Source of the DNA: a virus | Taxonomy: Duplodnaviria > Caudoviricetes | Reading direction: 5' to 3' (one strand) | Virus record (IMG/VR): IMGVR_UViG_3300014204_000111 | Coordinates: 156,862-220,861 of that record | DNA length: 64,000 bases | In this document: in pieces, positions 1 to 61,022 of the stretch | Numbering within the stretch: the stretch's first letter is position 1 | Layout of the letters: each line of letters starts with the position of its first letter | The notes under the pieces: model-generated | Seen by the model: the letters and a program-made list of their open reading frames with translations, nothing else | What the model was told of the DNA's origin: nothing | The model's database searches: none | Program-made: the position numbers and the translations under genes

Positions 1-2
1 AC

Positions 3-179
3 ACCCCTGTAGGTCTTCATAGACCAGATGCAGATACATATATTGAAAGTTATCCCGAACATCCTCATAATGAAAAATGGGAAGAGAAATTAAAGCAGAA
101 TAGCTACCTCCGTATGTTGTTCACCAAAGAAGAACGTGCCGAGGCTAAACGTAATATGGAAAAATACGGAGAACAATAA
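3..179 (+). CDS. 3' end of a gene entering the window (partial, hypothetical)
   Basis: Frame open from position 3 (TPVGLHRPDADTYIESYPEHPHNEKWEEKL...) to TAA at 177-179, which overlaps the next ATG (TAATG). Confidence 0.75.
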   Translation, partial: TPVGLHRPDADTYIESYPEHPHNEKWEEKLKQNSYLRMLFTKEERAEAKRNMEKYGEQ

Positions 180-1060
180 TGTCAACAGCAGAGCAAGTGA
201 TGCAACAAGCCGAAACCTATAAGTTATTCAAAGGTATTATTAATAATTTTGAAGAAGATTTGGTACAACATGGTTATGAGCTTGATGAACAAGATAAAGT
301 AAGAGTAATTAACTTGGTTATTGATACGACCCAGAAGCTTTTTAAAGGGTCTACAGATGAAGAGTTAATTGATTTTCTTGGTCGTTATGATAGAAATATT
401 AGAGCAACTGCTCTTAATACATTAAATAATGAATATGAACAAGAAGCTTTAACTAAATCTATGCAAGAATTGACATATCACCCAGACCATGTTTACGCTC
501 ATCAAGTAGAAGAGTCTGGAAAAGATGTTTATCCAGAAATGCTTAAGAGCAGATGGAATGAGTTGCCTGACGAACTTAAAAACCATATGGAACAATATCA
601 TATGGAAAATAGATTATGGCACACTCATACAGATAATTTGGCTGACCCATTGATTTTTGGTAAATCAGTTGAAACTAATATGGTTGAACGTAACTATATT
701 CATGAAATCGCTCACCGTCTTGACGAAAAAGCTGTAAGAGGCGAAGAGGCAGATGATGAAGAGATTTCAGTATATTCTGAGCTTTATAAAGCTGAAATTT
801 ATCCTGGTATGGTTGCCAGTGATGGTGTGGTTATTACTCCTGAGTTAGCTGAACATATGAATGGTATTCACGGCCCAAGATATCAAGCTCATCCTTTAGA
901 ACTTCCTATGATTGGCCCTTCTGGTTCATTTGTTGAATTTGAGCATTTAAAGAAATCAATGCCTGATAGACCTACATCATTTAAAACTGAGAATGAAGTT
1001 TCTATTTTGAAGCAAGAACTTTTTAATCTCGGCTACGAGACTCAAAAAAAAAATAGCTAA
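179..1060 (+). CDS. Acidic hypothetical protein, probable head-internal or protease-processed protein; short product of a probable frameshifted gene
   Basis: 293 aa ORF coupled by TAATG. Repeated hydrophobic-x-K-[SAG] motifs (LTKS, MLKS, FGKS, LYKA, LKKS). Ends just after an A10 run at 1044-1053. Confidence 0.7.
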   Translation: MSTAEQVMQQAETYKLFKGIINNFEEDLVQHGYELDEQDKVRVINLVIDTTQKLFKGSTDEELIDFLGRYDRNIRATALNTLNNEYEQEALTKSMQELTYHPDHVYAHQVEESGKDVYPEMLKSRWNELPDELKNHMEQYHMENRLWHTHTDNLADPLIFGKSVETNMVERNYIHEIAHRLDEKAVRGEEADDEEISVYSELYKAEIYPGMVASDGVVITPELAEHMNGIHGPRYQAHPLELPMIGPSGSFVEFEHLKKSMPDRPTSFKTENEVSILKQELFNLGYETQKKNS

Positions 1061-2189
1061 ATCCAGTCCTAATCCTGGCTGGTCAGATGATACTTACGAA
1101 GAAGACGATGATTCTGCACGTCAAGAGGCAGAAGAGTTAAGTTTAGGTCAAGATACTCCTTCTCAAGCAACTAAAAGATTTCTTCCAGCAGAAGGTCATG
1201 CTGATGGACAACATCCATATTTAAGTAACCCAATTCATTCTTCATTCTCTCATTTACAACAATATCTTCCTGAACTTAATCAGCATTTAAATGCATACTT
1301 ACAGCAAAATCCTAATTTTGACCCAAAGAATATACTTGCAGTTAGAGGAGCGGCATTAGAAGCTCTTCATCATCATCATACTCTAAATCACCTAAATCCT
1401 ACGCCTCCTCCGAATATACCTCAAATAGTTCAACAAGCAGGAGCGCTTATCCAAGGTCATCTTGATTCAGAAAAGAAAAATGTACAACAATCTTCACAAT
1501 CTTCATTAAGTAATCAAACTTGGGATAAGAATGATACAACAGATATTTTCGGTAAACCTACTTGGTTCCCACAACAAAAAGGTCACGGAGGTATGGGAGA
1601 ATTTTCTTCAAACTATATAGCTCCTTCAATGAATAAGTCTCTTAATTCTTTTGTCCAAATATCTATGCTTAAAGGTATGCTAGATAATTTACACACTAAA
1701 CATAATTACGGACACGGAGGAGAAATAGATGTATTAAGCGGAAAAACTGTTAATCCAAAAGATTTACCACAACCTGTTCAACCAATGCCATCTTCTCCTA
1801 TTGCTGTACCTAATGACCCTTGGAAAGAGGATAGGGAAGCACAAAAGTATGAGAAAAAGACTTTGCCACCTCATTCAGGAGATGGTTGGGGTTTAGCAGA
1901 TGATATTAGAGGAAATTTAACTGATGAACAAGAGATGGATGATGCTAATAATGACCCTAATAATGGACTAGCTCCAGAATTTAGGACAAAAACTGTTCAA
2001 TCAGACCCTAAGCAATCTCAAAGAATACAATCATTTCCTGGCAATTTATATCCTAGTAATCCATCTATGGTTCCTTCGACTCCTGCACCACAAGTATATA
2101 ATCCCAATGTTAAACCAAGTAATGTAGATATACTCCCCGGATTAAGAGCAATGATAGAAAGTGCTAAAGTAGGACAGGCTGGTAAATAA
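1044..2189 (+). CDS. Probable frameshift extension of 179..1060 (the supplied ORF 1593..2189 is only its 3' part); Pro/Gln/His-rich low-complexity protein
   Basis: Frame is stop-free from 1011 to 2189 with no ATG/GTG/TTG before 1593. After the A-run it reads KKIAKSSPNPGWSDDTYEEDDD. The GGAGGT before ATG 1593 has zero spacing, so it is not a usable RBS. Confidence 0.65.
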   Translation, partial: KKKIAKSSPNPGWSDDTYEEDDDSARQEAEELSLGQDTPSQATKRFLPAEGHADGQHPYLSNPIHSSFSHLQQYLPELNQHLNAYLQQNPNFDPKNILAVRGAALEALHHHHTLNHLNPTPPPNIPQIVQQAGALIQGHLDSEKKNVQQSSQSSLSNQTWDKNDTTDIFGKPTWFPQQKGHGGMGEFSSNYIAPSMNKSLNSFVQISMLKGMLDNLHTKHNYGHGGEIDVLSGKTVNPKDLPQPVQPMPSSPIAVPNDPWKEDREAQKYEKKTLPPHSGDGWGLADDIRGNLTDEQEMDDANNDPNNGLAPEFRTKTVQSDPKQSQRIQSFPGNLYPSNPSMVPSTPAPQVYNPNVKPSNVDILPGLRAMIESAKVGQAGK

Positions 2190-3448
2190 TGCAATTATTT
2201 AATGAAATTATTCAGGACTTAATCGGAGAACATGTATTTAATTGTTCTTGTGTTTCTGTGGAAACTAAGAAAACACTCATAACCTTATATTCAGATATGG
2301 TTGATAGCTTTGTAATGGGTGAACTTGGTAAATTTAAAATAACACAACAGATTTTTAAAGAATTTTTAAAAAATCAACTTCCCGAAGTTTTTGAAAAAGC
2401 TGACGCTCTTAGATTTGAAAGAGAAGCACAAGAAGATGTTGCTCAAATTATAAATAAATCTATTATTCAGCAGAAAATTCCTCAATTTGAACAAACACAT
2501 CAAGCATATTCTAAATGTTTATATATGAACCCATTTATTTTTGAAATGAAAGAAGGTTTTTACTTTAATAAACAAGGAGAACCATATATATATTTAGAAA
2601 TTCCTGATATTAAAGAACATATTCTCCATATAATAGATGATAGAAATAAATTTCCTAAAATTAAAGCAAGTTGGTTATTTTGTGATGATATAACTCCAGA
2701 ACTGGTACATAGATTTCATATGACAACTTATTCAATTGCGCTTATGATTAGGGACATTACGCATCATTTACAAGTAATGCATCCAGAAGATATTATTGCT
2801 AAACTATCTTCTGTGTTTATTCCAATTCCCCAAGGATTAAGTGTTTATTATCAAAATGAACAAGGACAATTATCTTTGCCATCATCACTTTACGCTACAG
2901 AATTAAAAGAAAGAGGTTTAGATAAAATTCCTTCGATTGGTGTATACGACCAATTAGTTAATGATAAAAATGCATTTTTTGATTTTATTAAACAAAACAA
3001 ATTAGCATCAGGTATTAAACTAGATTTAATTGGAGGAAGTTTATTTGGAGACTTTGGGTTATTAGGACACCCAAGTTATTTAGACCAAAAATTACCATAT
3101 ATTCATAATATACTATTACCTATGTTTTTAAATACTTATAAAAGAGAATCAATTAAACCTCAAATGTTACAAGCTCTAGAATCTAAATATCAAGAGTGTT
3201 TAGCAGAAATTCCGCCAGGATTACTAGAAAATGATAAAGTAGTATCTGTTCTTATCTCTTTATTACAAGAGGTTCAAGCTTTAGTTGTTTCTGGTGTAGG
3301 AGCAGCATTATATGCTATTACTCAGTATGGTGGATTTAACGAAATAACAGCAAGAATAGGTTTGTGTAGTAATACGACTTTATATGAATCTTTATCAGAT
3401 ACAGGAGTTAAAACACTATGTTATCTTAAAGGAGTAAGTCGTGATTAA
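2189..3448 (+). CDS. Hypothetical protein (419 aa) upstream of the prohead protease
   Basis: Long ORF, TAATG-coupled; no family recognised. Confidence 0.8.
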   Translation: MQLFNEIIQDLIGEHVFNCSCVSVETKKTLITLYSDMVDSFVMGELGKFKITQQIFKEFLKNQLPEVFEKADALRFEREAQEDVAQIINKSIIQQKIPQFEQTHQAYSKCLYMNPFIFEMKEGFYFNKQGEPYIYLEIPDIKEHILHIIDDRNKFPKIKASWLFCDDITPELVHRFHMTTYSIALMIRDITHHLQVMHPEDIIAKLSSVFIPIPQGLSVYYQNEQGQLSLPSSLYATELKERGLDKIPSIGVYDQLVNDKNAFFDFIKQNKLASGIKLDLIGGSLFGDFGLLGHPSYLDQKLPYIHNILLPMFLNTYKRESIKPQMLQALESKYQECLAEIPPGLLENDKVVSVLISLLQEVQALVVSGVGAALYAITQYGGFNEITARIGLCSNTTLYESLSDTGVKTLCYLKGVSRD

Positions 3449-4061
3449 TCTACAGGGAATCAAAATTCTTCCTATAAAAGAAAAACCATCTACTTTAATT
3501 ATTTCATCAAGTATATATGTAGATAAATTAATTGCTCTTCATCTTGGTTTTGAAGAGGTAATTAAACAATATGGTAATTTAACAAACTTAATAAGACTAG
3601 AAGTAGAACAATACAGAAGTGATTTAGGTCATTCTAATTTAATTTCAATTGACTTACCTTTATCAGTATATCATGCAAATTTCTCTTTACTCTCTGTTTT
3701 ACAAGTTGCTACGCTAATTATCGAACAAGATGAACATGATTTTGCTTCTCTTAATCCTTGTACGATGCAACAAATTAAAGAGAATAAAAGAATAATGGCT
3801 GATTTATATGCATTAATGCATTTACCAGATATTAATTTTATTTATTTTAGTGAAGGTTCTAACCATATGTTAACTACTCCTATTAAGCCAGTTAATGCTC
3901 CTGCAAATTGGGTAGATAAATTAGATAAAATTTTAGAAGAATATGAAGAATGGCAAAGTTCACAAGACCAAGAAACAAAACAATTATTTGGCGTAGAAAC
4001 AAGTAATGGATTTTTTGATAATATAGCAAAACAAGAAGTACAATTCTATCAAAATAAATAA
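3441..4061 (+). CDS. Hypothetical protein (206 aa)
   Basis: GTG start preceded by AAGGAG; overlaps the previous stop. Confidence 0.75.
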   Translation: MINLQGIKILPIKEKPSTLIISSSIYVDKLIALHLGFEEVIKQYGNLTNLIRLEVEQYRSDLGHSNLISIDLPLSVYHANFSLLSVLQVATLIIEQDEHDFASLNPCTMQQIKENKRIMADLYALMHLPDINFIYFSEGSNHMLTTPIKPVNAPANWVDKLDKILEEYEEWQSSQDQETKQLFGVETSNGFFDNIAKQEVQFYQNK

Positions 4062-4067
4062 AAGTGT

Positions 4068-4081
4068 GGGTAAAATACTGT
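4068..4081 (+). promoter_or_regulatory. GGG-TAAAAT promoter-like motif 5 nt upstream of the protease ATG (4082)
   Basis: GGGTAAAATACTGTATG; the motif recurs at 10393, 11008, 40519 and 58044. Confidence 0.55.
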
Positions 4082-6061
4082 ATGGCTAATAAAACCTTTA
4101 TAACTGGTGAAAATGTTAAAAGTCTTGTAAAGATGGAATATGACGGAGATGTTATCTTTGAAGGTATATTCGCATCTAATGATAGAGATATTCAAGGCGA
4201 TATTATTGATAAAACAATGCTTAAGCAAATGAATAATAATCTTAACACTGGTGCGCCTGTTTTCTTAAATCACTTTTATCATAGACCGGCTGTTGGTAAA
4301 GTTTTAAAATCAGAATATATGGAAGACCCAAATACAGGAAGAGCTTGGATTTGGGGGCGTGGTGTTGTTGATTCTGCTGATGCTGATTTTAAAAGACAAG
4401 TAGCAGATGGTAGATATAAATATATCTCGGTTGGTGGACATTTAGATGATTATGAAATGGAAAAGTCTGCCGATGGGAAATCTACTCGTCGTTGTAAAAG
4501 TGGAAAAGCTCTTGAGATATCTTTAACCGCAGTTCCTATTAATATATCTGCTGGTATGACATTAGCAAAAGGTCAAATTAACGATGAAATTACAGACCAA
4601 ATTATAGAAAATAATAACTTAATGAAAGCAATCTTCTCAATGGACGAGGATGAGCAAGGTAAATTAACTAAACTAAATTATCACGAAGTAGAATTTATCC
4701 CCATATCGGAGCAAAGTATGTTGCAAAAAGGTGAAGTTGGAGAATTCAAGAAGTTAGACGAAAAACCTAGCAAATCAAGTATTGAATTCGGACATGGTAC
4801 AAAAGTTGGAGAAGAAGACTTAGAAAAGTATTATAATCCAAAGGTTTCTGGCTTTATAACCAGCAAAGACGTAGACCCTCTTAATGTTTCTGACGAACAT
4901 TCTCAAGAATTCTTAAGCAAACATAAGACAAGTGTTATTGAATCAAATGAAAAACATGATGATTTTGGTTTTGTTGATAAAAACAGCGAATCTTTCTTAA
5001 ATAAAACTTCGATTTCTGACCCCGCTGCTCCTAACAAGTATGACCCAGGTAACTCTGTAGATAAAAATTCTAACTCTTGGATTCTTTCTCAGGCTAAAAC
5101 ATTTGTTTCTGGTTTAGATTCTATGCAAAAAGCAGTATTAGTTGATTTAATTTTCCACGATTTTAATACTGATAAATTATATGCAACATCTGGAGAAAGC
5201 CAGCCAAACGTCATTCACCGTTTATTACATCAAAAGAATTCTTATGCTAAAGCTGGTGGATTTTCTAATATTATTGGTCAAGAACTTACAGCATTATTAA
5301 AGTCTCTTGATTGGCGTAATTCTGATAACAATATGTATGATAGATTAGTATTAGACCATATTCTTGGCCCAAATCATATTGAAGAGGTAAAAGATTATTT
5401 AACTAAGTCTATGTATGGTTTTGCTGGAGACAAAGACCCTAATGAACCAGATGGCGATGAAATGGGACAAGACCCTTCAATGGGTGGTTCTCCTATGGGA
5501 CAAGACCCAAGTATGGGTGGAGCACCTATGGGACAAGACCCTTCAATGGGTGGAGCACCTGCAATGCCCGCTCCTGGTGCAGAAGGTACTGACCCAAGTA
5601 TGGGCGGTGGCGAAGACCCAACAATAGGCGCAGTTTCTCAAATTGTTGAAAAATATGCTCAGCAAGCAGGAATTGACCCCAATTCTATTCAACAACTATT
5701 ACAAGGTGGAGATGTAACTGGCGCAGCTAAGGCCGTTATTCAAGCATTACAGCAATCTAATCCTGACTTAGCTAATCAAATGTTAGATGAACTAAACCAA
5801 ACCCTACAGGGTGGTGGTTCTGAACAAGCAACACCTGGAGGTGGTGAAGCACCTGGCGCAGCTCCCCAATCAATGATGATGGGTAAATCAATTAATCCAG
5901 AAGAAGCTGTTGCTGCATATAGAGAAGCGAGAAAAGAACAGTTTACAAAGTCAAGAGTTTTCTCTGAACAACCTGCTCAATCTCGATATAATAGTAAACC
6001 AGCCAGCGGCGCTGACTTGGCAATGGCCTCTTGGATAGGTCAGTATAATATCGAAAGATAA
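4082..6061 (+). CDS. HK97-type prohead protease (peptidase S78/U35-like) fused to a long scaffold-like C-terminal region
   Basis: Motifs FEGIFAS..DRDIQGDII, PVFLNH (catalytic His), YISVGG (catalytic Ser), LEISLTAVPIN; lies directly upstream of the capsid gene. Start placed at ATG 4082 rather than GTG 4064, which overlaps the promoter motif. Confidence 0.88.
   Translation: MANKTFITGENVKSLVKMEYDGDVIFEGIFASNDRDIQGDIIDKTMLKQMNNNLNTGAPVFLNHFYHRPAVGKVLKSEYMEDPNTGRAWIWGRGVVDSADADFKRQVADGRYKYISVGGHLDDYEMEKSADGKSTRRCKSGKALEISLTAVPINISAGMTLAKGQINDEITDQIIENNNLMKAIFSMDEDEQGKLTKLNYHEVEFIPISEQSMLQKGEVGEFKKLDEKPSKSSIEFGHGTKVGEEDLEKYYNPKVSGFITSKDVDPLNVSDEHSQEFLSKHKTSVIESNEKHDDFGFVDKNSESFLNKTSISDPAAPNKYDPGNSVDKNSNSWILSQAKTFVSGLDSMQKAVLVDLIFHDFNTDKLYATSGESQPNVIHRLLHQKNSYAKAGGFSNIIGQELTALLKSLDWRNSDNNMYDRLVLDHILGPNHIEEVKDYLTKSMYGFAGDKDPNEPDGDEMGQDPSMGGSPMGQDPSMGGAPMGQDPSMGGAPAMPAPGAEGTDPSMGGGEDPTIGAVSQIVEKYAQQAGIDPNSIQQLLQGGDVTGAAKAVIQALQQSNPDLANQMLDELNQTLQGGGSEQATPGGGEAPGAAPQSMMMGKSINPEEAVAAYREARKEQFTKSRVFSEQPAQSRYNSKPASGADLAMASWIGQYNIER
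5462..5560 (+). repeat. Three tandem 33-bp coding repeats (MGQDPSMGG[S/A]P) with degenerate copies downstream
   Basis: ATGGGACAAGACCC...ATGGGTGG(TTCT/AGCA)CCT three times; GTDPSMGG and GEDPTIG follow at about 5585-5630. Confidence 0.9.
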
Positions 6062-6072
6062 GGAACTAAATA

Positions 6073-7353
6073 ATGAATCGTAGACAACCATTTGTGAAGA
6101 GCAATCAGAATTTCCAAAAAGCAGGAGATTTTCCTACTACATGGGGAGATTCAGGGAGTGTTCCCGCTGATTACCAAACAGTGTATAATCCTGGGCAAGG
6201 CTTTAACGTCTCTGCTCAAGTAGGAAGTCTTACAGCTCCTATTATTGGTAGCCCTGGTGTTATCAACTCAATCGGTGGTAGAGACTTCTTATCAATTGAT
6301 GTAACGCAAGAATATTTGCCTTATATCAACCAAGCGTCTTATTTGCGTAAGCACCACAGAGTCGTTCCTATGGACGGCCCAAGCAAGTATATTCCTAAGA
6401 TTGCTGGCCCAGCAAAAGTGTATGCAACTGGTGAAGGTCAGGTTATGAGTCAAACCGTAATCCCAACCACAACTGTTGCGTTGATTGCAAAAGCAATGGC
6501 AGTTTCTTTCGCAATTCCTCGTGAAATCGCGGATGACTCTATCATCAATTTGCTTCCTGCAATTAGAGAACACTTAGTTGACCGTTTCGTTCTTGCAGAA
6601 GAAGAAGCCTTCTTATTAGGTGATGAAAACACTTTCGCTGGTAGTGGTAGCGTTCGTTCTATGTTTAACGGATTGAGTGTCGGTGGTGAGTATAACTCCC
6701 TTGGCTCTTCAGATGTTATGGCAAATAACGGTGCTGAATTAATTAACGCCGCTGGAAACCCATTCTCAACTGAGCATGTTAACGAAGCTCTTGAGAAGTT
6801 GGACTTGCTAGGACAAAATCCTGACCATATTCTAGGTATTATTTCTCGTAAGCATGCAAGAACCCTACGTGGTGACTCTACGCTTTTACGTCAATTAACT
6901 AACTTTGGCCCAAGCCCAACCTTTAGAACTGGTCGTATAGGCCAAATCTTTGGTGTTAACTTGGTTCAAACTAACTTGTTGAATCCTAATGCGATGGTTC
7001 CAAGTGATGATGGTCAATGGTGGGGCTTCTTGGGCTTTGGTTCTGAAACTCCCGTTGAAATGACAACTCCTGGTGGAAATGACCCTGACCTTTTAAGTGA
7101 TTATGGTACTGGTAACAGAATCTATTCATATTATGGTTCAGAAGCTCTTGCTAAGGCGCATCAGACAACTCTTACTGAAGCTTTGTTTGTCCATAAGGAT
7201 AGCGCAGTTATCGGTGATAGACAGAAATTGGAAATCGAAATGTCTGCTCACACTCTATTAGCGGCTCGTTCGCTCTTGCTTGTGGCGCATGAGAGAATTG
7301 CATTTGCTTTACAATTACGTAGAGGTATTTGCAAGGTCATCCAGTTGGGTTGA
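6073..7353 (+). CDS. Major capsid protein (HK97 fold)
   Basis: Follows the protease; AAGGA RBS. HK97-like segments VYATGEG, IPREIADDSIINL..IREHL..RFVLAEEEAFLLGD, GQIFGVNLV, C-terminal ERIAFALQLRRGICKV. Strong terminator follows. Confidence 0.93.
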   Translation: MNRRQPFVKSNQNFQKAGDFPTTWGDSGSVPADYQTVYNPGQGFNVSAQVGSLTAPIIGSPGVINSIGGRDFLSIDVTQEYLPYINQASYLRKHHRVVPMDGPSKYIPKIAGPAKVYATGEGQVMSQTVIPTTTVALIAKAMAVSFAIPREIADDSIINLLPAIREHLVDRFVLAEEEAFLLGDENTFAGSGSVRSMFNGLSVGGEYNSLGSSDVMANNGAELINAAGNPFSTEHVNEALEKLDLLGQNPDHILGIISRKHARTLRGDSTLLRQLTNFGPSPTFRTGRIGQIFGVNLVQTNLLNPNAMVPSDDGQWWGFLGFGSETPVEMTTPGGNDPDLLSDYGTGNRIYSYYGSEALAKAHQTTLTEALFVHKDSAVIGDRQKLEIEMSAHTLLAARSLLLVAHERIAFALQLRRGICKVIQLG

Positions 7354-7389
7354 TGCATGTATCATCTTACCCATTCCATCAGATTATTC

Positions 7390-7417
7390 AAGAGGCTGTT
7401 AAAAGCCTCTTTTTTTT
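7390..7417 (+). terminator. Rho-independent terminator after the capsid gene
   Basis: AAGAGGCT-GTTAAA-AGCCTCTT followed by a T run. Confidence 0.85.
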
Positions 7418-7458
7418 GGGTATATAGAGTATACGAAAAATTATACAGGAGTATAACG

Positions 7459-8463
7459 ATGCAGTGGATTCAACAAGAAGACGATTTGCTTAAAGCAAAA
7501 TTTGCGACAACAGGTACATATGATTTACTACCCTTATTTCCTGGCAGAACTTGGAAATCTTTGGTACATCGTGCAACAAAATTGGGATTATCTAAAACTA
7601 AAGAATGTAGAACTAATTTAACTAGAAAAGCCTCATCATTGTCTCAAAATGATATTCTTTTAATGAAAGATAAGTATTCTAAAATTGAACAATATAAATG
7701 GCAATATTTAGCAGGAATGATAGATTCAGATGGTTGTATTCGTTTATACAAAAATACAGCAAATTATTCTCCAGTTATATATGTGACAAATATATCAGAA
7801 TCACTTATAGATTGGTTAGTAAATAATTTTGGTGGTTCTAAAAATAATATCAGACATAAAACGGGAGATTCAATTAATGGTATTACAGTGAAGAGCAGAA
7901 GACAGGCTTTTAGTTGGAAACTAACAGGTTTAGAAAATGTGGTAGAATTACTTAAATATCTAAAAAGTGAATTAATTATAAAGAGACAGCAAGCAGAAAT
8001 TATTCTTGATGCTCACTCTCAAGGCTGGTATTCTATTAATTTAGAACCTGTTTATACAAAATTAATTCAATCTAAAAAAGAATATGACATTAATAATTCT
8101 TGCTCTTCAGTTATTACAGATGCTTATCTAGCGGGAATGATTGATGGAGATGGATGTATTATATTAAGATACAATAATTATGACTTTATTAATGCTATGT
8201 TAGATATATCCAATGAAAGTATAATTTTAAATAAAAAATTATTAGATTTAGGATGGAATCAATTTATGAATAGAGGATTAATACATAATACAATTTATAA
8301 ACAAAAAGACTGTCTTTCTTTGCTCTTAAACATTAGCCCTTATCTCATCATCAAAAAAGAGCAAGCGGAATTAGTTATTGAATTCTTACAAAACAAAAAA
8401 ACCCTTGATAAAGAAGGTCAAGAGGATTATAAAAATCGTCTATCTCTTCTAAAACAAGGGTAA
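7459..8463 (+). CDS. Free-standing double-motif LAGLIDADG homing endonuclease with an N-terminal Myb/HTH-like segment
   Basis: YLAGMIDSDG and YLAGMIDGDG motifs; N-terminal W...EDDLL...RTWKSL..RATKLGL. AGGAG RBS 7 nt before ATG 7459; the supplied start at 7357 runs through the terminator. Confidence 0.9.
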   Translation: MQWIQQEDDLLKAKFATTGTYDLLPLFPGRTWKSLVHRATKLGLSKTKECRTNLTRKASSLSQNDILLMKDKYSKIEQYKWQYLAGMIDSDGCIRLYKNTANYSPVIYVTNISESLIDWLVNNFGGSKNNIRHKTGDSINGITVKSRRQAFSWKLTGLENVVELLKYLKSELIIKRQQAEIILDAHSQGWYSINLEPVYTKLIQSKKEYDINNSCSSVITDAYLAGMIDGDGCIILRYNNYDFINAMLDISNESIILNKKLLDLGWNQFMNRGLIHNTIYKQKDCLSLLLNISPYLIIKKEQAELVIEFLQNKKTLDKEGQEDYKNRLSLLKQG

Positions 8464-11021: not shown

Positions 11022-11597
11022 ATGAGTAAAATATGTACAAAATGCGGTATCGAAAAGTCGTTAGAAGAATTCCATAAGAGTTCTGCCTCAAAAGATGGTC
11101 ATAAGCCAATCTGCGTAGAATGTCGTTCTAGATGTACTACTCACCCTTTCACCCCAAAAGGAATGAAGTGGTGTGGTGGTTGTAAACAAAATTTGCCCAG
11201 AGACAAGTTTGATAAAAATGGTAATTGTTTGAGAAGTCTTTGTAAAGAATGTAGAAGTGACTATAGAAAAGGAACTCCTATGAGTGATAATGCTAAGAAA
11301 AATGCTAGAACTAAATATGAAGAGAATATGACTGTTTACTATGATTATTTATCAACTCAAAAATGCGCTGATTGCGGAGACACAGATATTAGAGTTTTAG
11401 AATTTGACCATTTACCTGAATATGAAAAGAGTTTTAATATTGCTCACAGAGCAGGTTATTTTTCTTGGGATAAAACTTCAGAAGAAATTAAGAAGTGCGA
11501 AGTAGTATGTAGAAACTGTCACGCTAAAAGAACAATTGACAGACGAGAGAATGCTTTTATAACTAAATATATAAAAGCCCAAAATAGTGAGGTGTAG
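11022..11597 (+). CDS. HNH endonuclease with tandem N-terminal zinc fingers
   Basis: CTKC..CVEC and CGGC..CKEC fingers, then CADCG...LEFDH...EIKKCEVVCRNCH. Confidence 0.9.
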   Translation: MSKICTKCGIEKSLEEFHKSSASKDGHKPICVECRSRCTTHPFTPKGMKWCGGCKQNLPRDKFDKNGNCLRSLCKECRSDYRKGTPMSDNAKKNARTKYEENMTVYYDYLSTQKCADCGDTDIRVLEFDHLPEYEKSFNIAHRAGYFSWDKTSEEIKKCEVVCRNCHAKRTIDRRENAFITKYIKAQNSEV

Positions 11598-13491: not shown

Positions 13492-16400
13492 ATGCCATTG
13501 AATAAAGTCAATTTCGCTCAAGGTGCTAATTTAAGCTCTGAGTGCTTACAAAATATACAAACAAATTTTGATAGATATCTAAGTTCACATCAACATGATG
13601 GAGTTAATAGTCCCTTTATAGATGCCTCTGAGGTGCATTTAGAGGGCCAAGACGCAGGTAATCCACTTAATCGCACATTATATGACCATGTAAGAGATTA
13701 CGCTATCCACGGGTTTGGAAATCGTTATGCTGTTACTAGTCCATATAGTGATACATTAAGTGAAAGTGATTATGTTGAGATAGATATTATCGAAGACTGT
13801 AAACAATGGACATTTAACGGGACTTATTGGGAAACTATCGTTCAACTAGCTAAGCCTATTGAAAGCGATTATACTGTTCAAATTCAGCCAGTATACAGTA
13901 ATCATTATGTAGATTTTTTTACAAAATTAAATCCAGATACAAACTTTGCTAATTTAGAAGGTGTTGTTCCTCTTAATAATACTCTTTTAAATTTACATAT
14001 TATTCCTACAAACTTAACTTCTTCTAGTTTTGGAGTAAGATTATACGCAATTGGTAAGGGGACTAGACATCAATTAGTATCATATGATGAATCTTTATTT
14101 GCAAATAAAAATAAAATTTATTTTGCTGAAAGATTAACGCTTCCTATTACAGGAAATAGTGAGTTAAATACATTTAAAATTCCTTATGCTGGAGGATTTA
14201 ATTATCTTCCTAAGAAAGGAAAATGTTCTTTTCCTGTTGATATATTTTTGGCAGTTAATGCTATTGTTACTCCTAATAGTACTAAACTTATTGTTGGGGA
14301 TAGCGTTAAGCCTCTACCATTTAATATAGCAGATAATAACACTTATGCATTCAGAGATATTAGCGAAGATATAGCTGGATTTCAAGCTCCAACAGATGCT
14401 GCTAATTTTGGTTTTATTACCGAAGAAGATGCAAAAAGTTTAGAAATTTTAAATCTTAGTTCTTTTAGTCAGGCACAACTAGCTAATATAGTTATTTCAG
14501 GAGATAATATTGAATATAAAACTAGAACTTTTCATTATATAGACCAGCAAGGAAATACTGTAGATACTATTCCTGATGAAATACTACCAGGAATGATGTA
14601 TTATGTTATTATTGTTGATACAGTTCATCATTTAAATGGAGACCCTGATTCTACTAGTACTATTATGAAGCCTCTATCAGAAATATTAATTATTTCTAGC
14701 GATAAAAATATCATAGAATATCAAGCTTCAATAGGAACTTTGACTCCTAGAACAGTAGATAGTTATGGAAATATAGCCGAAACAAATGTATTTTTAAGTG
14801 GCGACTATCAAGTTTTAGATAATGAATATATTCTTTTAAATAATGTAACTTATAATGGAAGACAAGCTGATGATTTATATTATCAACCACCAAAAAATAC
14901 AGAGGTATCAATTGCTTCTCAAGATTTTTCTGACGCTCATTCCGATAATGCATCTCGTATATTTTATGATAATCATAATTTATTAACTGATATATTTCCT
15001 GGTTTAACACCAGAAACTTCTGTGGCACTTTATTATAAAGGATTCAATTCTGTTGATTCTCAAGCTCTTTATCCTGATATGAAAGTAGATTTACGAAATA
15101 CTTCTACATATAATAAAACAGTGTACTTTTCTAATAAAGAATACTTAATTGATAGTAAATTTATTCCTATTAGAATTCGTCCTAAGTCAATAGTTGTTAA
15201 TGCTAAATCTGTTCTTACCACAGAATATAATGCTATTTTTGTTAGACCAAAAACTATTATCTTAAGACCAGAAGATGTATTTTATCCTTTAACTGGTGCT
15301 CAAAATACATTTAATTTCCCACAAGGTGTAGCTATTGGTTTAAACAAAACTTTAGCCTTTAAAGCACTTAATTTGGATAATTTTTCTGATAACTTCAATT
15401 CATATCATTTCTACGCTTATCTTAAATGTCCTACTAATGATGGCAAATATGTCACTGGATATGCTGAATTTTTTAATAATAACTTGTTAGACTATATTAA
15501 TGATGCAGATGCAGAGTCGATTGATTATCAAACTATTCAAGGAAATGCTGAAAGTAGAATCTTTACTGGAGAATTTTCCACATATGTTCCAGTATCAGGT
15601 AAACTAGTTAGTGAATTAATTGACAATTTAAGAAATTATTATATTGAAACAGATAAAGAGCCTTCTGAGGCTATTATTCCAGGTATAACAAAAGTTTTTA
15701 TTAATAAATCTGATATTCAACCACTGAATTATTTAAACAGATTCTATACTGGGTCAGACTTGTCTGCTAAATTTTTGGCACATAGTTCTACCACTCCGCT
15801 AGATTCACATATTGGTATAGTTAAGAATGTAGAAAAAACTAATTCAGAAACATGGAGAGTAAATCTTTACAGTCCAGTTCATCAAAATTCAGAAGCTACT
15901 TATTTACAAAAAATATTTGATGGATTAGATTTTATACCACAAGATGTAGTTAATATTAACGGAGAACCAGTCTTCTTATCCAAGACTCCTACAGAACCAT
16001 TATTATACAAGAGAATAACCGCTGAGGTTGTCAGTACAAACAAAATTATTTTGGATAAAAATGATATCATTAATACTAATAGATATCAAGATAATTTATT
16101 TAGCTTTGATGTTTACTCAGAAGACGATTCAAAAGTTGTTACTAATACAAAATATATTGCTAATAATAATGATGTAGAATTTACACACTATCTATATGTT
16201 GGGTCAGAATTACCATTTAATACTATTGATTGTATATTAGATGACCCTATTAATGCTTCTTTAGGAGCAACAGTTACTTACCAATTTTTAGACCAAGAAA
16301 GTGAATGGATTGACCTTACTTTATTAAACAATACAACAACTCAAAATTTAGATTTTTATGGATTAGGAGATTTTTCAGAATTTCCTAATTCTGTTGCTAT

Positions 16401-19400
16401 TTTTGAGCGTCCTAATATTGCCACTATTAACGAAAGATATTCTTCTCAACCTTATACTACAAGCAGATGGACAAAAAGCTCTTTACCTGATTTTAAATCT
16501 ACATCTAAATATTGGGTTAGAATTAAGGTAGATGTTCCAACTCATAATTCACTACCTTCTAGTGATACTCGTAAAGGGTATTTTCCTGTTATTAGAAGCG
16601 TTTCTGTATATTCAACCTCTCCTGCAAATATTAGGATTAATAACTGGTCTTGTACGGCTACACAAGATGTAAATCAAAAATACATAGTTACTCTTACTAA
16701 GGTAAGTAATGCCTCAACAGATATCAGTTATTTAAGAAAGGGAGATTTTGTTTCTTGGAGACAAATAATAGATAGTGTTACACACTATTTCCAAGGGACA
16801 CTTATAAGCGCAGCTAAAGACGGAAGTAATAATATTACTTTAATAATTAATAGTCCTAAATGGGCTGGAGAAGAATCTACGGTATCTATGGTTACGTCAT
16901 GTAGAAATCCTCTCTCATATATTCGTAATATTCGAGTGCCAATCGATAAAGATATACATGTTAATATTAGTAGAAGAACAAATCAACAAAATCCTATTCC
17001 TCCATTAGGAACTTCTGGATTTTATGATTCTATTGCTTATGGAGCGTTAAAACAACAATTTTTCTTAATCTCTGAAGACCATGAAACACCATTGACATTA
17101 AACGAAGATTTTGATAATATTCGTAATTGTTATGATGAATATGACGATAATGAGACTCCAGACAAAGGAGATATACGCACTTTTTACTTTAAGGGAGATT
17201 TTGTTCTTACTGAGGTATGTCCTCGTATTATTTCTGATACAGTTCAATATGGAATTATTTCAGACCACTCTATAGGTATCCATGATAAGTTATGGATTAA
17301 TTTGCTACAATATAATTCTTCAAACTTAAATTATTATGTAGCAAAACTTTCTACTAATGACCAGTATTATTTGGTTATTCGTAGTGGAGGAACTTTACCA
17401 GTTGAAGAAGATTTGAATGATTTTAATGTTGGAGCTTTTTCTAATAAGTTCGCTTATTTATGGGATGATAATTATCCTATTTTAAGTAGAGATGGAATTG
17501 TCGAAGATATATCAGAAGATTCTCCTGGTGGAACCTATAGTTTAACAGATATTGAATTTTCTCAAAGAGTGTCCAAATTTTATAAAGGAGATGCTTTATC
17601 TTTTGGTGCTAGAAATCTTATCGGTATAGTTTTTGATACCGATGATATTTATACATCTTATAATCCAGATAGACCTTCTTTTACAAATGTAAATGGTATT
17701 GATGATATTTCTAATACATTTGAACTAGTTCTTCCAATTAGTGTGACTAGTTTTGGAGATAATGTTTTTGTTAATAATGGATTAACAAATACTGGAGATA
17801 CTTTTGTTTACTCTGATGCTCGTACTATTTTAACAAAAGAAGCAACTTTAGATAGTTTCCCAGAATTACCTTATGAAATAGATTTATTAACCTTAGTAGA
17901 GTCTGATTCATTATATGCCAAAATTAATACTGTTAAAAATACAGAAGACGGTTTAGAAATTATACTTGGAGATAATCCTCCAAATACTGATGAAATATTA
18001 TTAGTATCAGAGGGTTATTATAGTAATATTTCCTCAACTTTAACTATTGAAGATGATGATATTAATCGTATTAAGTCCAGAATAACACAGTTAAGAACTG
18101 AAAACAAAGGACTTGGAGATGCTACAAATAATGGAGACTTCAAATACGAAAAACTTGTCCAAAGTCATAAAGCTTATGATTTTGGTAGGGCTTGGGCTGG
18201 CTTAAAAGATAAGCAAGCTAGAGTGGCTGTTAAGTTTAATCCTACTTTAGACGATAATGTTTCTTATAATATTAAGAACTTTTCTTTTTTACCAGGATAT
18301 GATGGAAATTCTATCAATGGTATTAATTCTATTGGAAATGGAATATATTGTTTTGTAACCCCAATTCGAAATATCAAACATTATAATCCCGCTCTTGATG
18401 GGAACTATTTTGGTGTAAATATTAAATTATCTGACTCTTTTGCCTCTTTATCTAATTTGACTTATGCTCATACTCATGGTGCTGTAGATACTTATAATGT
18501 TGAATCTATTGTTGATTCTATAGGTAAAGTACCATCTGATAGTTTATATTATTTATTATCTGATAATCCTATATCTGGTTATCTACCTTATGCAGGTAAT
18601 ATTGTTACAAGAACAGTTAATGGTGTTACATATACTAGAGCTGAGGCTAATGCTACTCTTTTAGATATTTCAACTGGAAGAAGGTATATTCGTGTAGCTA
18701 ATAAATGGAGAGACTTATTAACAAATACTGAACCAGTATATGAACTAGTTTCTAAATTCAATCCGTCAAATCATGATGAATCTTTAGTTTGGCATTTAGC
18801 AAAAATAGATAACGAATATTTTATCTATGTAGGTAATTATTCTATTATTGACCCAAGCACAATTCCTTTCTCAGTAGGAACTATTTTACAAAGTTTTGAT
18901 GCTTGGCCTATGACAACTAGTATAACATATGATAATCCATATTTTATAGTAGAAGCATCTTTTGATAGTCAGAAGAAACCACAAGACACAACTTATACTC
19001 ATCAAATTTGGAAGAAAGTTAAAGAAGGAGATAATACTACAGTTATTCCGTGGGGGCCAACTAATAATGCAGTATTTGGTGGTTCTTACTTAAATTATGC
19101 TACTTCTATTTTGCCAGTTAAGACAGGGCAAACTGTTTCAGTAGTATGCTTAAATCTTGGCGATGATGGTACAAAAGAATATATTAAAGCTAAAAGTATA
19201 TCACTTGGAACTGTTGCGGAAGCTTGGTATAATCCGGTAAATATTAATCGTATTGCAAAAATACATTATACAGCGGGTGTGGTTGACAGTATAGTTTTCA
19301 ATGATACTATTCCTCAATATATGGATATATGTCGAGTTATTAATAGCAAAGATATTTATATATTTTATGGAGTATCTCCTAATGGAAGATGGACAAAATA

Positions 19401-33852: not shown

Positions 33853-35277
33853 ATGTGGAAAGAATATAATATAACCAATGCTAATTCAGAATTTACTGCG
33901 GAAGATTTTACTTTATTACAAAATCATTATCTTAAGCAAATAATTCGTCATAATCATCCGGTTATTAAAGCAGATAATATAAAAATTAGTGAAATGAGCG
34001 AGGAGCAAAATCCAGTTGGATTAGTAACTCCTATAGATGATTCTGTTTTAACTTGGCAAGACCATGTAAATTTAGCTCATACAAAAACTTTGACTGGAGG
34101 AAGATTGTTAGCAAGGGGTTATACTGTACCAATAAAGGCGAGATTTGTTATTACAACACCAATTATGGATTCTACTGCCAACTTACCATTTCCAACCTAT
34201 AATATGTCCACCGAAACTATTAACAAAAGTATTGCTTCTTCGGATGTTATGGAACAAGTTCCTCCGAATAGACATGACCATTCAGCTTACACTAATTACA
34301 GACATTATTTATGGATATTACCTATGAACAGTGTATGCCAAATACATCCATCACATAAGACTCTTATATCAGGTGATATTGGTAGTCTTGTTTTTTCCCA
34401 TATTCCTTTATATATACATCCATCTAATACAGATTTACTAAAGTCTATAATGGATTCGACTAATACACCTAATTATCGAGGATTAACATATATTCCTGAT
34501 TATGCTGAAGAAAAAATTTGGTCTTTGACTGATGATTCGACATGTTGGATGACGGGGTATAAGCCAATTGTAGCTAATAATAATAAAGATATTATGCTAT
34601 TTTTTAATGATTATTATAACGAATTTAACCAAATTTTATCTATTTTGAATTATGAAGAACAATTTAGAGAGTATATGTTTAGATTGGAAAAATCGGTAGG
34701 TAATGTAACACGACTAGAAAATACAGATATATCAGATATTACAAAGTTGATGGAATCAAAAAGAATTGATGTTTTAGATGCTCCAGAGCACAGTGGAATT
34801 ATTTTTGATAGTATTAAGAAAAAATATTCTCCTTTCTCTTTATTTGAATATAATTTTAAAACTGACAGAGTAAGTGATAGACTGAAAGATACACTAATAG
34901 AATCGTGTATGGAGAAACAAGCTAAAAATGTTACTTTCTATACTAAGGGATTATCTAATTTCACTAGCGTAATAGAAGAAAGTGAATTTTTACACGATTT
35001 ATATATTCCCTCATATTTTGAAGATGGATATAGACAATGTTTAATTTTAACAGGAGAATTAGGAGTTTCGTCTCGTTCTTTTAAAAAATTACACAAAGGA
35101 AGAGTTATGTTAGCTTATCAAATTATTGATGGCTTTATTTCTGTTCCTTATGAAATTTACTCTTATGATACTAAATCTACTGGTACAACAAGTAATGAAA
35201 TATTAGCTGGAACTTCAGTAGGAAAAAGTATTACAGATGTTACAAGAATGGATACCACAGAAACTTTATGTAAATAA
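33853..35277 (+). CDS. Putative structural protein (474 aa) sharing an N-terminal LQ...HxH motif with 13492 and 38228
   Basis: GAGGTG RBS; FTAEDFTLLQNHYLKQIIRHNH. Confidence 0.7.
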   Translation: MWKEYNITNANSEFTAEDFTLLQNHYLKQIIRHNHPVIKADNIKISEMSEEQNPVGLVTPIDDSVLTWQDHVNLAHTKTLTGGRLLARGYTVPIKARFVITTPIMDSTANLPFPTYNMSTETINKSIASSDVMEQVPPNRHDHSAYTNYRHYLWILPMNSVCQIHPSHKTLISGDIGSLVFSHIPLYIHPSNTDLLKSIMDSTNTPNYRGLTYIPDYAEEKIWSLTDDSTCWMTGYKPIVANNNKDIMLFFNDYYNEFNQILSILNYEEQFREYMFRLEKSVGNVTRLENTDISDITKLMESKRIDVLDAPEHSGIIFDSIKKKYSPFSLFEYNFKTDRVSDRLKDTLIESCMEKQAKNVTFYTKGLSNFTSVIEESEFLHDLYIPSYFEDGYRQCLILTGELGVSSRSFKKLHKGRVMLAYQIIDGFISVPYEIYSYDTKSTGTTSNEILAGTSVGKSITDVTRMDTTETLCK

Positions 35278-43330: not shown

Positions 43331-43687
43331 ATGCAAGAAGTGGAGTTTGAGGGAAGTAAGTATACTATTAAAACAGAGCCGATGACCATTGGAGACCTAA
43401 TGGACATGACGGCATATATGGATTATCTAAAATGGTACTCGCAACGACTATTGCCTGAGCAGGTTCCTTGTTCAGAAGATAGCAAAGAATTTTACGGACA
43501 AGTGGCAAGAGCCTTAGTTATTGTAAAAGCAGGATTAGCTCCTCCGGGGCATAGTAATATGAATCCTATGACTTTACTACAATTAAGAGGTAAGTTGCCT
43601 GAGTTTGTAAAATTTATTTGTCATCAATATGATATTTCCAAAGAACCTGCTTTGGCAACTACAGAAGAAGAAGCTAAAAAAAAATAG
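43331..43687 (+). CDS. Tail assembly chaperone (gpG-like)
   Basis: After the tube gene; ends EEEAKKK on an A9 slippery run. Confidence 0.8.
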   Translation: MQEVEFEGSKYTIKTEPMTIGDLMDMTAYMDYLKWYSQRLLPEQVPCSEDSKEFYGQVARALVIVKAGLAPPGHSNMNPMTLLQLRGKLPEFVKFICHQYDISKEPALATTEEEAKKK

Positions 43688-43908
43688 CAGAAAATCCTCA
43701 TCTTAAGGCTATTCTTGATTTGGGTTTTTATATGGGTGTGAATCCATTCGCACCAACTTTGCGTGAAACTCGTCAAGATTATTTCTTGCTCTTAACTGTT
43801 CATAGAGAGTACATGATTAATCAACGTAAAATTCAAGCTCAAATTGAGAAGGATAAAGCAGACGCAATTAATCAATTTCTTCCATCAAGAGGAGCGTTTA
43901 GAAGATAA
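43678..43908 (+). CDS. Tail assembly chaperone -1 frameshift extension (gpT-like)
   Basis: A AAA AAA heptamer at 43678-43684; the -1 frame is open as KKIAENPHLKAILDLGFYMGVNPF... to TAA at 43908. Confidence 0.8.
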   Translation, partial: KKIAENPHLKAILDLGFYMGVNPFAPTLRETRQDYFLLLTVHREYMINQRKIQAQIEKDKADAINQFLPSRGAFRR

Positions 43909-57831: not shown

Positions 57832-57848
57832 ACTATATAGAGGAATTA

Positions 57849-58057: not shown

Positions 58058-58100
58058 ATGTCTTCTAATACCACAGAATAACATAAGGAAATAGATAAAA

Positions 58101-59129: not shown

Positions 59130-59139
59130 AGAGAAAAGA

Positions 59140-60498
59140 ATGAATAAATATATCACCGCTGAAGAGTTATTGCGCGCAACTGAAAAGAAAGTAGAAGATA
59201 AATTTGCTGCGGCTGCTCAATCTTGCTTTCCTCGCAAAGTTACACTCCAAAAAGCTGTAGAGATTGAAAGAGATATTGTAGTTGATAATTCTATTGAAGA
59301 TGTTATTAATTTTACTCGCTCGATGGCATCTCCTCTATCAGAGGCAGATATGTTCCATTTCATCTCTTTTGGTTCTGATTCACAGAGAAAAGCTAACACT
59401 ATTGTATCCGCACAGGCTAATACATTTAGTCCTGAAGAAAGAAGAAAACAATTAGCTCTTCTTCTTGCTAAAGCAGACCAATATCCAGACCATATTAATT
59501 CTAGAGAACAGTTAATTCTTAAAGATATTAATAAAAATATTATAGAAATTCTCGAAGGTAATATGAATAGAACGAGCCTCAATTCTTTTGTTGATAAAGC
59601 CCAAAGATTCTTCACTGGTAAGGCTACTGCTGAAGATTTACAAGGTGAAACAATTAGATTTGCAGGCTCTTTTTCTAAGAGTATGGATTCTATGATGGAA
59701 CAAGTTTCAACTCTAACAGATGATGAAGCTGAATTTCTAAAGAGTGTTGTTTTGGAAGCTGCTGAAGATGCAGTCTGGGGGCCATATGGACATCTTTTGG
59801 CTGGAATTGACCTCCCAAAAGCCCCATTAGCCAATGATTTTGGCACAAATTCTTATGTTGGCCCTGTCGCTGGCGTTCAACGTCATCCTCAACAATGGCC
59901 TACTCAAAAAGAGAATCCTATGACTGATTCTATGGGGGTGCATGGTCTAATGATGCACGACTCTATAGTTGCTAATTCTCCTAAAATGGGAATGACTAAT
60001 CATATTAGTACAAAACCTAGTAATTCTCCAATTGGTAATCAACCTACTCAGTATTTTAACACTCCTCTTGGTGCAGGTGGAGATAAGTCTTTTAATGCTA
60101 CAGACCCAGCAATGATTGATAGTATGAATCAAGCAGGTGGTTATCCTGGTGCTCAAGCTGTTGACCAAGCTGCTCATCCTATTACACAAGAAGGAATGGG
60201 ACATGGTGGAGAACCTCCTAGAGTTGGTTCTTTTGGTTTTAATGGTGCAGGTGGAGACGAAGATGATTTAGGTGGACAAGCGGAGCAAATTTTTGCTCAA
60301 TTAGATGCCCTAACTCAAGCACAACATGGTGGAGAAGCTTCAATGGCTTCTGAAAGCGGAATGGGAACTGTAACAGGTTCTTTTGGACATGATGGAGATA
60401 AACATTGCGGAGATAAGTTTTCAATGTATAAATCTCTTCTTTTGGAGGATGAGCAAAGCTCCCCTTTTCCAAGGGAATTGGTAGAAACGAAGAAGTAG
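59140..60498 (+). CDS. Probable head-internal, protease-processed protein; short product of a -1 frameshifted gene
   Basis: Many hydrophobic-x-K-[SA] motifs (LQKA, LAKA, FSKS, FLKS, MYKS); G/P/Q/M low-complexity C-half with HGG motifs. Confidence 0.7.
   Translation: MNKYITAEELLRATEKKVEDKFAAAAQSCFPRKVTLQKAVEIERDIVVDNSIEDVINFTRSMASPLSEADMFHFISFGSDSQRKANTIVSAQANTFSPEERRKQLALLLAKADQYPDHINSREQLILKDINKNIIEILEGNMNRTSLNSFVDKAQRFFTGKATAEDLQGETIRFAGSFSKSMDSMMEQVSTLTDDEAEFLKSVVLEAAEDAVWGPYGHLLAGIDLPKAPLANDFGTNSYVGPVAGVQRHPQQWPTQKENPMTDSMGVHGLMMHDSIVANSPKMGMTNHISTKPSNSPIGNQPTQYFNTPLGAGGDKSFNATDPAMIDSMNQAGGYPGAQAVDQAAHPITQEGMGHGGEPPRVGSFGFNGAGGDEDDLGGQAEQIFAQLDALTQAQHGGEASMASESGMGTVTGSFGHDGDKHCGDKFSMYKSLLLEDEQSSPFPRELVETKK
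60444..60468 (+). other. Candidate programmed -1 frameshift signal: internal SD GGAGG plus slippery heptamer C CCT TTT
   Basis: GGAGG at 60444-60448, 13-nt spacer, in-frame X XXY YYZ heptamer at 60462-60468; the -1 frame is open to 61022. Confidence 0.7.
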
Positions 60499-61022
60499 GA
60501 TTATTACAACATGGTGGGCCAGACCCAGGCGAAGAAAATGAAGAGCATGGAGGAATTAGACCTAATATTAAAATGCCATTATCTCAACAATTAAGTCCAG
60601 AAGAAGAACAAGCTGTTTATAATCATCATACAAATATGATGAAAGTGCTAAGTGCAAATAATAAAAATGACCCTAATTCTTTGAATTATTTTGAAGGTAA
60701 ATTAAATGAATTGGCTAATCATCATGGTTCTGAGGTTGTTGGAGATGCATGGCAAGAAGGAAATTTACTTCCATTAATGAAGAGACACCCTACTTATATT
60801 CCCAATCTTTTAGCAGAAGTTAAGAGACAAAAAAGTCCTAGTCAACAACAATTGCCATTTGGTCATGGAGGAATTAAATTAGATAAAAATAATGGTTATT
60901 TATCTAACGGAAATTATAATCCACCTACACCAAAAGAAGAAAAGAAAGAAGAATTTAAACCACAACCAGAATTACCTGCTGATGTCAATATAAACAACTG
61001 GGATAAACCCAGAACTAAATAA
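60462..61022 (+). CDS. -1 frameshift extension of 59140..60498 (includes the supplied ORF 60573..61022)
   Basis: Reads PFSKGIGRNEEVGLLQHGGPDPGEENEEHGGIRPNIKMPLSQQL...; same motifs as the zero-frame part. ATG 60573 lacks a well-spaced SD. Confidence 0.68.
   Translation, partial: PFSKGIGRNEEVGLLQHGGPDPGEENEEHGGIRPNIKMPLSQQLSPEEEQAVYNHHTNMMKVLSANNKNDPNSLNYFEGKLNELANHHGSEVVGDAWQEGNLLPLMKRHPTYIPNLLAEVKRQKSPSQQQLPFGHGGIKLDKNNGYLSNGNYNPPTPKEEKKEEFKPQPELPADVNINNWDKPRTK

Follow-up and report, generated by a model that had tools for sequence, protein, structure and literature searches.

Two genes of an uncultured jumbo phage with a frame change next to protease-site motifs: candidates for frameshift-dosed, protease-released head proteins

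Why would one phage carry two genes, some 58 kb apart and apparently unrelated, that both leave their reading frame in an acidic, lysine-motif-rich protein and could continue in another frame as a disordered, start-less extension? The question is raised by a stretch of 64,000 nucleotides (here called the window), positions 156,862 to 220,861 of the IMG/VR virus record IMGVR_UViG_3300014204_000111. The window is the final 64 kb of a 220,861-bp contig with overlapping ends and a GC content of 31.7%, and the phage is an uncultured jumbo phage, probably sequenced from a landfill metagenome. A preliminary description of the window, made from the sequence alone, had proposed that the two genes (here gene 1 and gene 2) encode capsid cargo polyproteins whose extensions are dosed by frameshifting and released by the prohead protease. 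The analysis presented here supports recoding, more firmly for gene 2 than for gene 1. As to its purpose, the evidence leans, if only slightly, towards two carrier-plus-extension genes that would load a set fraction of a fast-evolving extension into the head by way of the prohead protease. Judged from their sequences, the products of both genes are probably head-loaded.

In what follows a K site is an occurrence of the motif hydrophobic-x-K-[SAG], and a slash marks the putative cut. The elements of gene 2 are these:

59140..60498, plus strand: frame-0 product of gene 2, 452 amino acids (aa), with a conserved helical N domain (residues ~1-227) that has 6 K sites
60444..60448, plus strand: GGAGG, 13 nt upstream of the heptamer, a possible Shine-Dalgarno-like stimulator
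60462..60468, plus strand: -1 slippery heptamer C_CCT_TTT, in phase and inside the overlap with the -1 frame (60453..61022)
60468..61022, plus strand: gene 2 extension, 184 codons in the -1 frame, with FSK/G at the junction and FGHGG further on

Behind the N domain the frame-0 product runs through a G/P/Q-rich region with the motifs GHGG, QHGG and GHDG, and the shift product would read ...SSPF-SK/GIG at the junction. The extension has 40 start-less codons ahead of its first ATG (60573), which hold two HGG motifs; this start-less lead was the second longest in a genome-wide scan. In-phase CCCTTTY was found seven times in the genome, and only the copy in gene 2 is followed by a long open -1 frame. 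Recoding of gene 2 is considered highly probable.

The elements of gene 1 lie near the other end of the window:

179..1060, plus strand: frame-0 product of gene 1, 293 aa, an acidic conserved N domain with 7 K sites
1044..1053, plus strand: A10 slip site, within the overlap of the two gene 1 frames
1053..2189, plus strand: gene 1 extension, 378 codons in the +1 frame, P/Q/N/H-rich, with IAK/S at the junction and two GHGG motifs

The frame-0 product ends in ...TQKKNS at its stop codon. The only continuation is in the +1 (or -2) frame, which is stop-free from 1011 to 2189, i.e. 392 codons open in a genome of this low GC content. The first ATG, GTG or TTG of that frame is at 1593, leaving 194 codons without a start, and arithmetic from the genome base composition gave a probability of about 2e-7 for a stop-free run of 194 codons by chance. 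The A10 run is the sole homopolymer of at least 10 in the 220,861-bp genome. At this run frame 0 ends after two codons and the -1 frame ends at once (TAG), while the +1/-2 frame has no stop until 2189. If one A were lost, or the ribosome slipped by +1/-2, the junction would read ...QKK-IAK/SSPNPGW. The extension has further K sites, residues 486 and 498 when numbered in the fused protein, and its stop overlaps the start of the next gene.

Recoding of gene 1 is judged likely. The most likely route is slippage of RNA polymerase with loss of one A, with a +1 or -2 ribosomal slip as the alternative. Nine A or T in a row are enough for efficient slippage of bacterial RNA polymerase, and on A runs a -2 or a +1 shift can bring ribosomes into the +1 frame (PMC5009743). 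The window phage has another A-run junction in a tail-chaperone-like gene pair (43331..43687 and 43678..43908) just before the tape-measure slot, the classic place for such a pair; a -1 join lies there at GCT-A9-TAG (A9 at 43676..43684). This junction, A9 then TAGC, closely resembles that of gene 1, A10 then TAGC, and shows A-run recoding to be in use in this phage. Two further A9 runs sit in frame within ordinary genes, so that an A9 run by itself is not diagnostic. When the genome was scanned for a long start-less overlapping frame combined with a slippery motif, only gene 1, gene 2 and the tail-chaperone pair were returned.

Conservation of the frame change was assessed in relatives, the sequences of which are all metagenomic. 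Near and protein-level searches of GenBank phages gave no match to gene 1, gene 2 or the capsid protein, and pattern scans of IMG/VR and JGI with single proteins gave none; it took an N-domain alignment as query to find G001. In a word-indexed protein search the gene 1 N domain found itself only, and the N-domain alignment found L002 only. Metagenomic relatives of the capsid protein (55-81% identity) led to two long contigs, L001 (the same phage as G001, 202 kb) and L002. An exhaustive HMMER search with gene 2 yielded four distant N-domain homologs, and the junction DNA was read for three of them (L007, L008 and L009). The gene 2 homolog P0015 is a protein that ends ...KKKT. The junctions of the relatives are as follows:

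L001, gene 1 family: -1 after 775 aa, C_CCT_TTC with TAA directly behind
L002, gene 1 family: -1 after ~430 aa, U_UUC AGA only, no heptamer
G001, gene 2 family: -1 after 503 aa, A_AAT_TTT, followed at a distance of 4 nt by a 12-bp hairpin (z -2.3)
L007, gene 2 family: serial -1 shifts after 224 and 438 aa, C_CCT_TTC TAA and then C_CCT_TTT TAA
L008, gene 2 family: -1 after 213 aa, C_CCT_TTC
L009, gene 2 family: -1 where the N domain ends, A9 run with the heptamer A_AAA_AAA

A frame change was thus present in every ortholog examined (L001, L002, G001, L007, L008 and L009), and the gene 2 ortholog of L007 (3998..5960) uses all three frames through its two -1 shifts. Among the nine -1 junctions, window included, five have C_CCU_UUY, one has A_AAU_UUU and one an A9 run. 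CCCTTTY is rare, as the count for the window genome indicates, yet it is found at five junctions in two unrelated families, a recurrence that cannot be coincidence. Orthologs in diverged relatives (the gene 2 N domains share 24-31% identity) keep a frame change with a slippery motif, which indicates real recoding and not chance overlaps. The extensions, and the regions behind the N domains, could not be aligned across relatives. The shift lies directly behind the N domain in window gene 1, L007, L008 and L009, and behind a long disordered stretch in window gene 2, G001, L001 and L002. The preliminary description had reported a frame change in both window genes, and its retention in relatives bears this out. 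It had also seen a shared architecture without obvious overall similarity, and both BLASTP and hhalign found the two N domains to be unrelated. As the two carrier families are unrelated, the architecture is either convergent or modular.

The K motif was then compared with its expectation from composition-preserving shuffles of every predicted protein of the genome (~260). The six most enriched proteins were:

Gene 1, fused: 10 observed, 2.1 expected
4064..6061, plus strand: protease-scaffold, a prohead-protease-like domain (~residues 30-185) fused to a scaffold-like low-complexity C part; 11 observed, 3.4 expected
Gene 2, fused: 8 observed, 2.4 expected
6073..7353, plus strand: major capsid protein of the HK97 fold, with N-terminal FVK/S and FQK/A that are kept in relatives; 4 observed, 1.1 expected
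33853..35277: a protein of 474 aa; 7 observed, 1.7 expected (p ~0.002)
11022..11597: a small HNH-like protein; 5 observed, 0.9 expected

Residues 30-185 of the protease-scaffold match protease and head-protein PHROGs of the HK97 type. When gene 1, gene 2, the protease-scaffold and the capsid protein were pooled, 33 K sites were observed against 9.1 expected (z 8.3), and the remaining proteome had 273 against 277 (z -0.3). The excess described earlier for these proteins, including the motif common to the protease-scaffold and the capsid N-terminus, therefore withstands correction for composition. Five control motifs (R for K, reversed order, acidic P1', E at P1 and acidic P3) were flat. The acidic character reported for the K-site-rich N parts was also found, with net charges of -25 (gene 1) and -9 (gene 2). 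The 474-aa protein may, on its motif count, be another protease substrate.

The motif had been defined on these very proteins, so that only the relatives provide an out-of-sample test. Their gene 1 and gene 2 orthologs had 47 K sites against 14 expected (z 9.2), their protease-scaffolds 10 against 2.2 and 13 against 2.8, and their capsid proteins 4 against ~1.2. The relatives' portal, upstream neighbour of gene 2 and HNH protein were at or below expectation. The positions of the sites are conserved as well: in gene 1 the residues K18, K56, K123 and K259, and in gene 2 K111, are invariant in motif context (hydrophobic P3, small P1'), and the capsid N-termini of all three phages read PF[VI]K/[SA] ... 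QK/A. The carriers are densely set with K sites, and the disordered parts have few. A K site was found at most 16 residues from the junction at 8 of 8 junctions (random mean 2.95, P = 2e-4), with 12 K sites within that distance against 3.6 expected; this clustering fits release of the extension. The more specific claim, a K site right after the shift, was upheld for the window (IAK/S and FSK/G) and for L007. It did not extend to the other relatives, where the nearest site lies 14-16 residues after the shift or 5-6 before it. Capsid maturation in HK97 involves a cut between K103 and S104, and by this analogy the K motif is read as the cleavage code of an HK97-type prohead protease.

A second short motif was also common to the two genes. 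HGG occurs 15 times in the proteome, 13 of them in the gene 1 extension, gene 2 and a multi-enzyme polyprotein of 1975 aa encoded shortly before the window (genome 145137..151064). Composition and HGG counts both agree with the earlier account of P/Q/N/H-rich extensions with HGG motifs. The versions in relatives are FGDG, AGDG and IHGGDG, giving the general form hydrophobic-G-[HD]-G. HGG was considered as a K-type cut site with H at P1 and ruled out, as the relatives have D at that position. From sequence comparison, hydrophobic-G-[HD]-G is taken as a second shared short motif of genes 1 and 2 and the polyprotein, and not as a K-type cut site.

The gene 1 N domain (window 179..1051, L001 3133..4200 and L002 3124..4100; 38-43% identity) is rich in histidine, with 12 of its 14 His residues invariant in the three sequences (p = 9e-7). 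An HExxH motif (HEIAH, in the context HExxH-RLDE) is invariant in the same three. This conservation means that the domain may be more than a targeting piece, and from its residues it could bind metal or act as a peptidase and represent a new family. Weak leads from the ESM Atlas pointed to the zincins ATLF and M90 (scores 0.82-0.84). No zincin profile or fold match was obtained, the HExxH region having a predicted local distance difference test (pLDDT) score below 60 in the AlphaFold model. Neither N domain, nor the gene 1 extension, could be usefully assigned from Pfam, PHROGs and PDB profiles, AlphaFold models (mean pLDDT 60 and 62), Foldseek against BFVD and PDB, or the ESM Atlas.

Both genes are part of a single long plus-strand structural block, which begins before the window, in the terminase/portal region, and extends to 61022. 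Gene 1 lies two small genes past the portal gene, ahead of the protease-scaffold (4064..6061) and capsid (6073..7353) genes. Gene 2 is the final gene of the block, behind baseplate-like and fibre-like genes.

In the predicted architecture a carrier domain is followed by an optional disordered spacer, a K-flanked junction and an extension. Under the proposed mechanism, standard decoding would yield mostly the conserved N-terminal carrier, in gene 2 together with the disordered stretch. In a fraction of decoding events a shift near the end of the open reading frame (ORF) would add the disordered, fast-evolving extension rich in P, Q, N, G and H, through a -1 ribosomal slip on C_CCU_UUU in gene 2 and through slippage on A10 in gene 1. 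The carriers would co-assemble in the prohead core, with the shift frequency setting the count of carriers that have an extension. The prohead protease would then shred the carrier and cut at the junction-proximal K sites, leaving the extension free within the head. The location of the proteins in the head, their cleavage, their stoichiometry and what becomes of the extension are inferred here. By analogy, the carriers look like the multiply cut propeptides of SPN3US ejection proteins, or like scaffold components.

A number of observations count against this mechanism or against the evidence behind it. The A10 run is covered by contigs only and not by raw reads, and an A9 run (a plain fusion) or a mixed population is possible. 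The gene 1 orthologs shift by -1 far 3' of the N domain and have no A run, which makes the A10 site of the window a lineage-specific replacement. The junction of L002 is without a canonical heptamer, and stimulatory elements are inconsistent from junction to junction: in a stimulator scan a strong hairpin was found in G001 only, the first junction of L007 (L007a) had a 6-bp GC stem, and the other junctions were no better than shuffles. L009, a 3.9-kb contig, has an extra +1 break at an A5 run inside the N domain (3092..3231 / 3161..3766). This break is probably an assembly error, and it indicates that such contigs can carry indel errors and calls for caution with single metagenomic junctions. 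The enrichment of the K motif in the window was measured on the proteins that defined it, and K as the P1 residue of the protease rests on the HK97 analogy and not on a test. Gene 2 is located at the end of the tail/baseplate block, outside the head module. Lastly, the extensions are acidic, whereas the internal proteins of T4 are basic.

The strongest alternative, which is possible though distinctly less probable than the head-loading mechanism, accepts the recoding and holds that the products are transient assembly factors like lambda G/GT instead of cargo. Short and long forms would assemble together by way of their common N domain. The extension would be an adaptor recruiting another component, such as the portal, the shell or the HGG polyprotein, and the protease would destroy both forms, which would then exit the head, with nothing kept or ejected. 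It would explain why the frame-0 product is the N domain alone in window gene 1, L007, L008 and L009, which fits the excess of G over GT (PMC5009743). The extensions also hold K sites, and disordered acidic segments with short hydrophobic-G-[HD]-G motifs are typical of binding adaptors. The distribution of the K sites, sparse in the extensions and clustered at the junctions, nevertheless points to release and not to wholesale destruction, and divergence of the extensions past alignment is unusual for the adaptor of a conserved partner.

A second alternative, which seems unlikely, concerns gene 1 only. The A10 break would be an error, or a recent inactivating or phase-variable indel, in a gene whose true or ancestral form is a 669-aa in-frame fusion, leaving gene 2 as the one recoded gene. 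In L001 and L002 the N domain does continue in frame into a low-complexity region, A9 at the window site would give one ORF, the A5 break of L009 is of the indel type, and, as said, the site was seen in contigs and not in reads. On the other hand, two assemblies agree on A10: window 1..8000 is reproduced with zero differences or gaps by a Logan contig (80.5 kb, depth 17), which comes from another assembly of the probable source run. The run is also the only one of its length in 221 kb, both other frames stop within 0-2 codons, and the tail-chaperone pair of the phage itself uses A9 then TAGC. Moreover, the run lies exactly where the conserved N domain ends, the place at which L007, L008 and L009 of the other family shift. 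Identical 151-nt pieces of the window phage were present at low depth in a groundwater metagenome run of 2022 from another study (X2); compared over window 1..8000, these pieces left 802..1068 without coverage.

It is very improbable that each downstream ORF is a gene by itself, with a start of its own (in gene 2 the ATG at 60573, with GGAGGA ~18 nt upstream and a 149-aa product), and overlaps by chance, given 194 start-less codons in the gene 1 extension, two of the 15 HGG motifs of the proteome in the 40 codons ahead of 60573, and in-phase slippery heptamers at 7 of 9 -1 junctions (window gene 2 included) in two families.

The favoured mechanism, dosed loading of a protease-released extension, has elements in common with several known systems. 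In phage lambda, G and GT are made at 30:1 by -1 frameshifting, and frameshift-made C-terminal extensions are known for the major head protein of A2 and the capsid and tail proteins of PSA and A118, including Ig-like extensions (PMC5009743). Genes 1 and 2 resemble lambda gpG/gpGT and such extensions in that a slippery site lies close to the 3' end of a gene in the structural module, and in that the predicted minor trans-frame product joins the N part to a C-terminal module. In systems of the lambda G/GT type the ratio is set by the efficiency of the shift, the choice between -1 and +1 being apparently immaterial, and the same logic would apply here. Programmed frameshifts in phage structural modules, the tail-chaperone pair aside, have been described chiefly for capsid and tail subunits. 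Genes 1 and 2, by contrast, are not tail chaperones, capsid or tail subunits, and their N parts form two new, mutually unrelated families crowded with protease-site motifs. What the shift adds is disordered and hypervariable, without an Ig-like or T domain, and one ortholog shifts twice in series. Neither gene is in the lambda G/GT slot directly upstream of the tape-measure gene, which the pair 43331..43687 and 43678..43908 occupies.

Among the protease-processed internal and ejection proteins of large phages are the T4 internal proteins and Alt, which have a capsid-targeting sequence, and the phiKZ/SPN3US E proteins, which are cut at A-X-E; the N-terminal propeptides of the SPN3US ejection proteins, 111-254 aa, are removed by the prohead protease in multiple cuts (PMC10052503). 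The likeness to genes 1 and 2 is a long N region with multiple copies of the capsid maturation motif and an implied C-terminal mature part released in the head. The motif here is the HK97-like hydrophobic-x-K/[SAG] and not x-x-E, and recoding would set the dose of the putative mature part. No homology of genes 1 and 2 to known internal or ejection proteins was found with Pfam, PHROGs, PDB profiles or fold searches.

Gene 1 can also be compared with minor head proteins of the MuF/SPP1 gp7 type that have variable C-terminal toxins. MuF-VIP2 fusions are present in Microbacterium phages (PMC7302621), and the joins predicted by PRFect include pairs of MuF-like and VIP2 genes (PMC10885494). A position just past the portal gene, a conserved N part, a variable C part and presumed packaging are common to both, but the C part of gene 1 has no enzyme domain and is joined by a frameshift, not by fusion. 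Gene 1 had no match to Phage_Mu_F or Phage_min_cap2 in Pfam, even at E = 10, and none in PHROGs; the sole link was an Atlas feature lead of 0.83.

Transcriptional slippage on A/T runs is documented for dnaX of Thermus thermophilus, the mxiE and spa genes of Shigella and IS elements (PMC5009743). These systems share with gene 1 and related junctions a run of 9-10 A, nearby stops in the unwanted frames, and, as predicted for gene 1, short and long products of one gene. They differ in that window gene 1 would need one A lost or two gained. Frameshift-added C-terminal modules and protease-processed head proteins are both known already, and their combination would be the new part; no paper linking recoding to protease-processed head-internal proteins was found in the literature available to search.

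Some features of neighbouring genes were recorded alongside. The low-complexity middle of the protease-scaffold (5400..5560) contains tandem repeats of the MGQDPSMGG type. Directly 3' of the capsid gene, the ORF 7357..8463 has two LAGMID(S/G)DGCI motifs and probably encodes a LAGLIDADG homing endonuclease; L001 has an HNH gene in the matching place. The structural block also contains two giant ORFs, 13492..27144 (4550 aa) and 27131..33823 (~2230 aa), in the matching place of which L002 has an ORF of more than 3560 aa.

Two results stand apart from the fate of the proteins. C_CCU_UUY beside a stop codon is added by these data as a recurrent shift site of bacterial viruses, and L007 is a rare case of one gene spread across three frames. 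A broader and rather doubtful extension of the head-loading mechanism would treat the frameshift sites as evolvable ports of a modular head-loading system, in which unrelated, protease-destroyed carriers receive hypervariable disordered cargo through C_CCU_UUY or A runs. From one gene with serial sites, such as that of L007, the products would be nested and their ratios geometric, and hydrophobic-G-[HD]-G would be a packaging tag or a cut site, perhaps read by the HExxH domain of gene 1. If dosed loading itself is true, unannotated head cargo of metagenomic phages could be recognised by a sequence rule that combines a slippery site where a carrier ORF ends, a start-less frame behind this site and the protease motif, and the junctions would be ports, provided by nature, through which foreign polypeptide could be put into capsids in defined amounts. 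For the giant phages themselves it would be a way to fix how many copies of a protein are packaged without a promoter for each.

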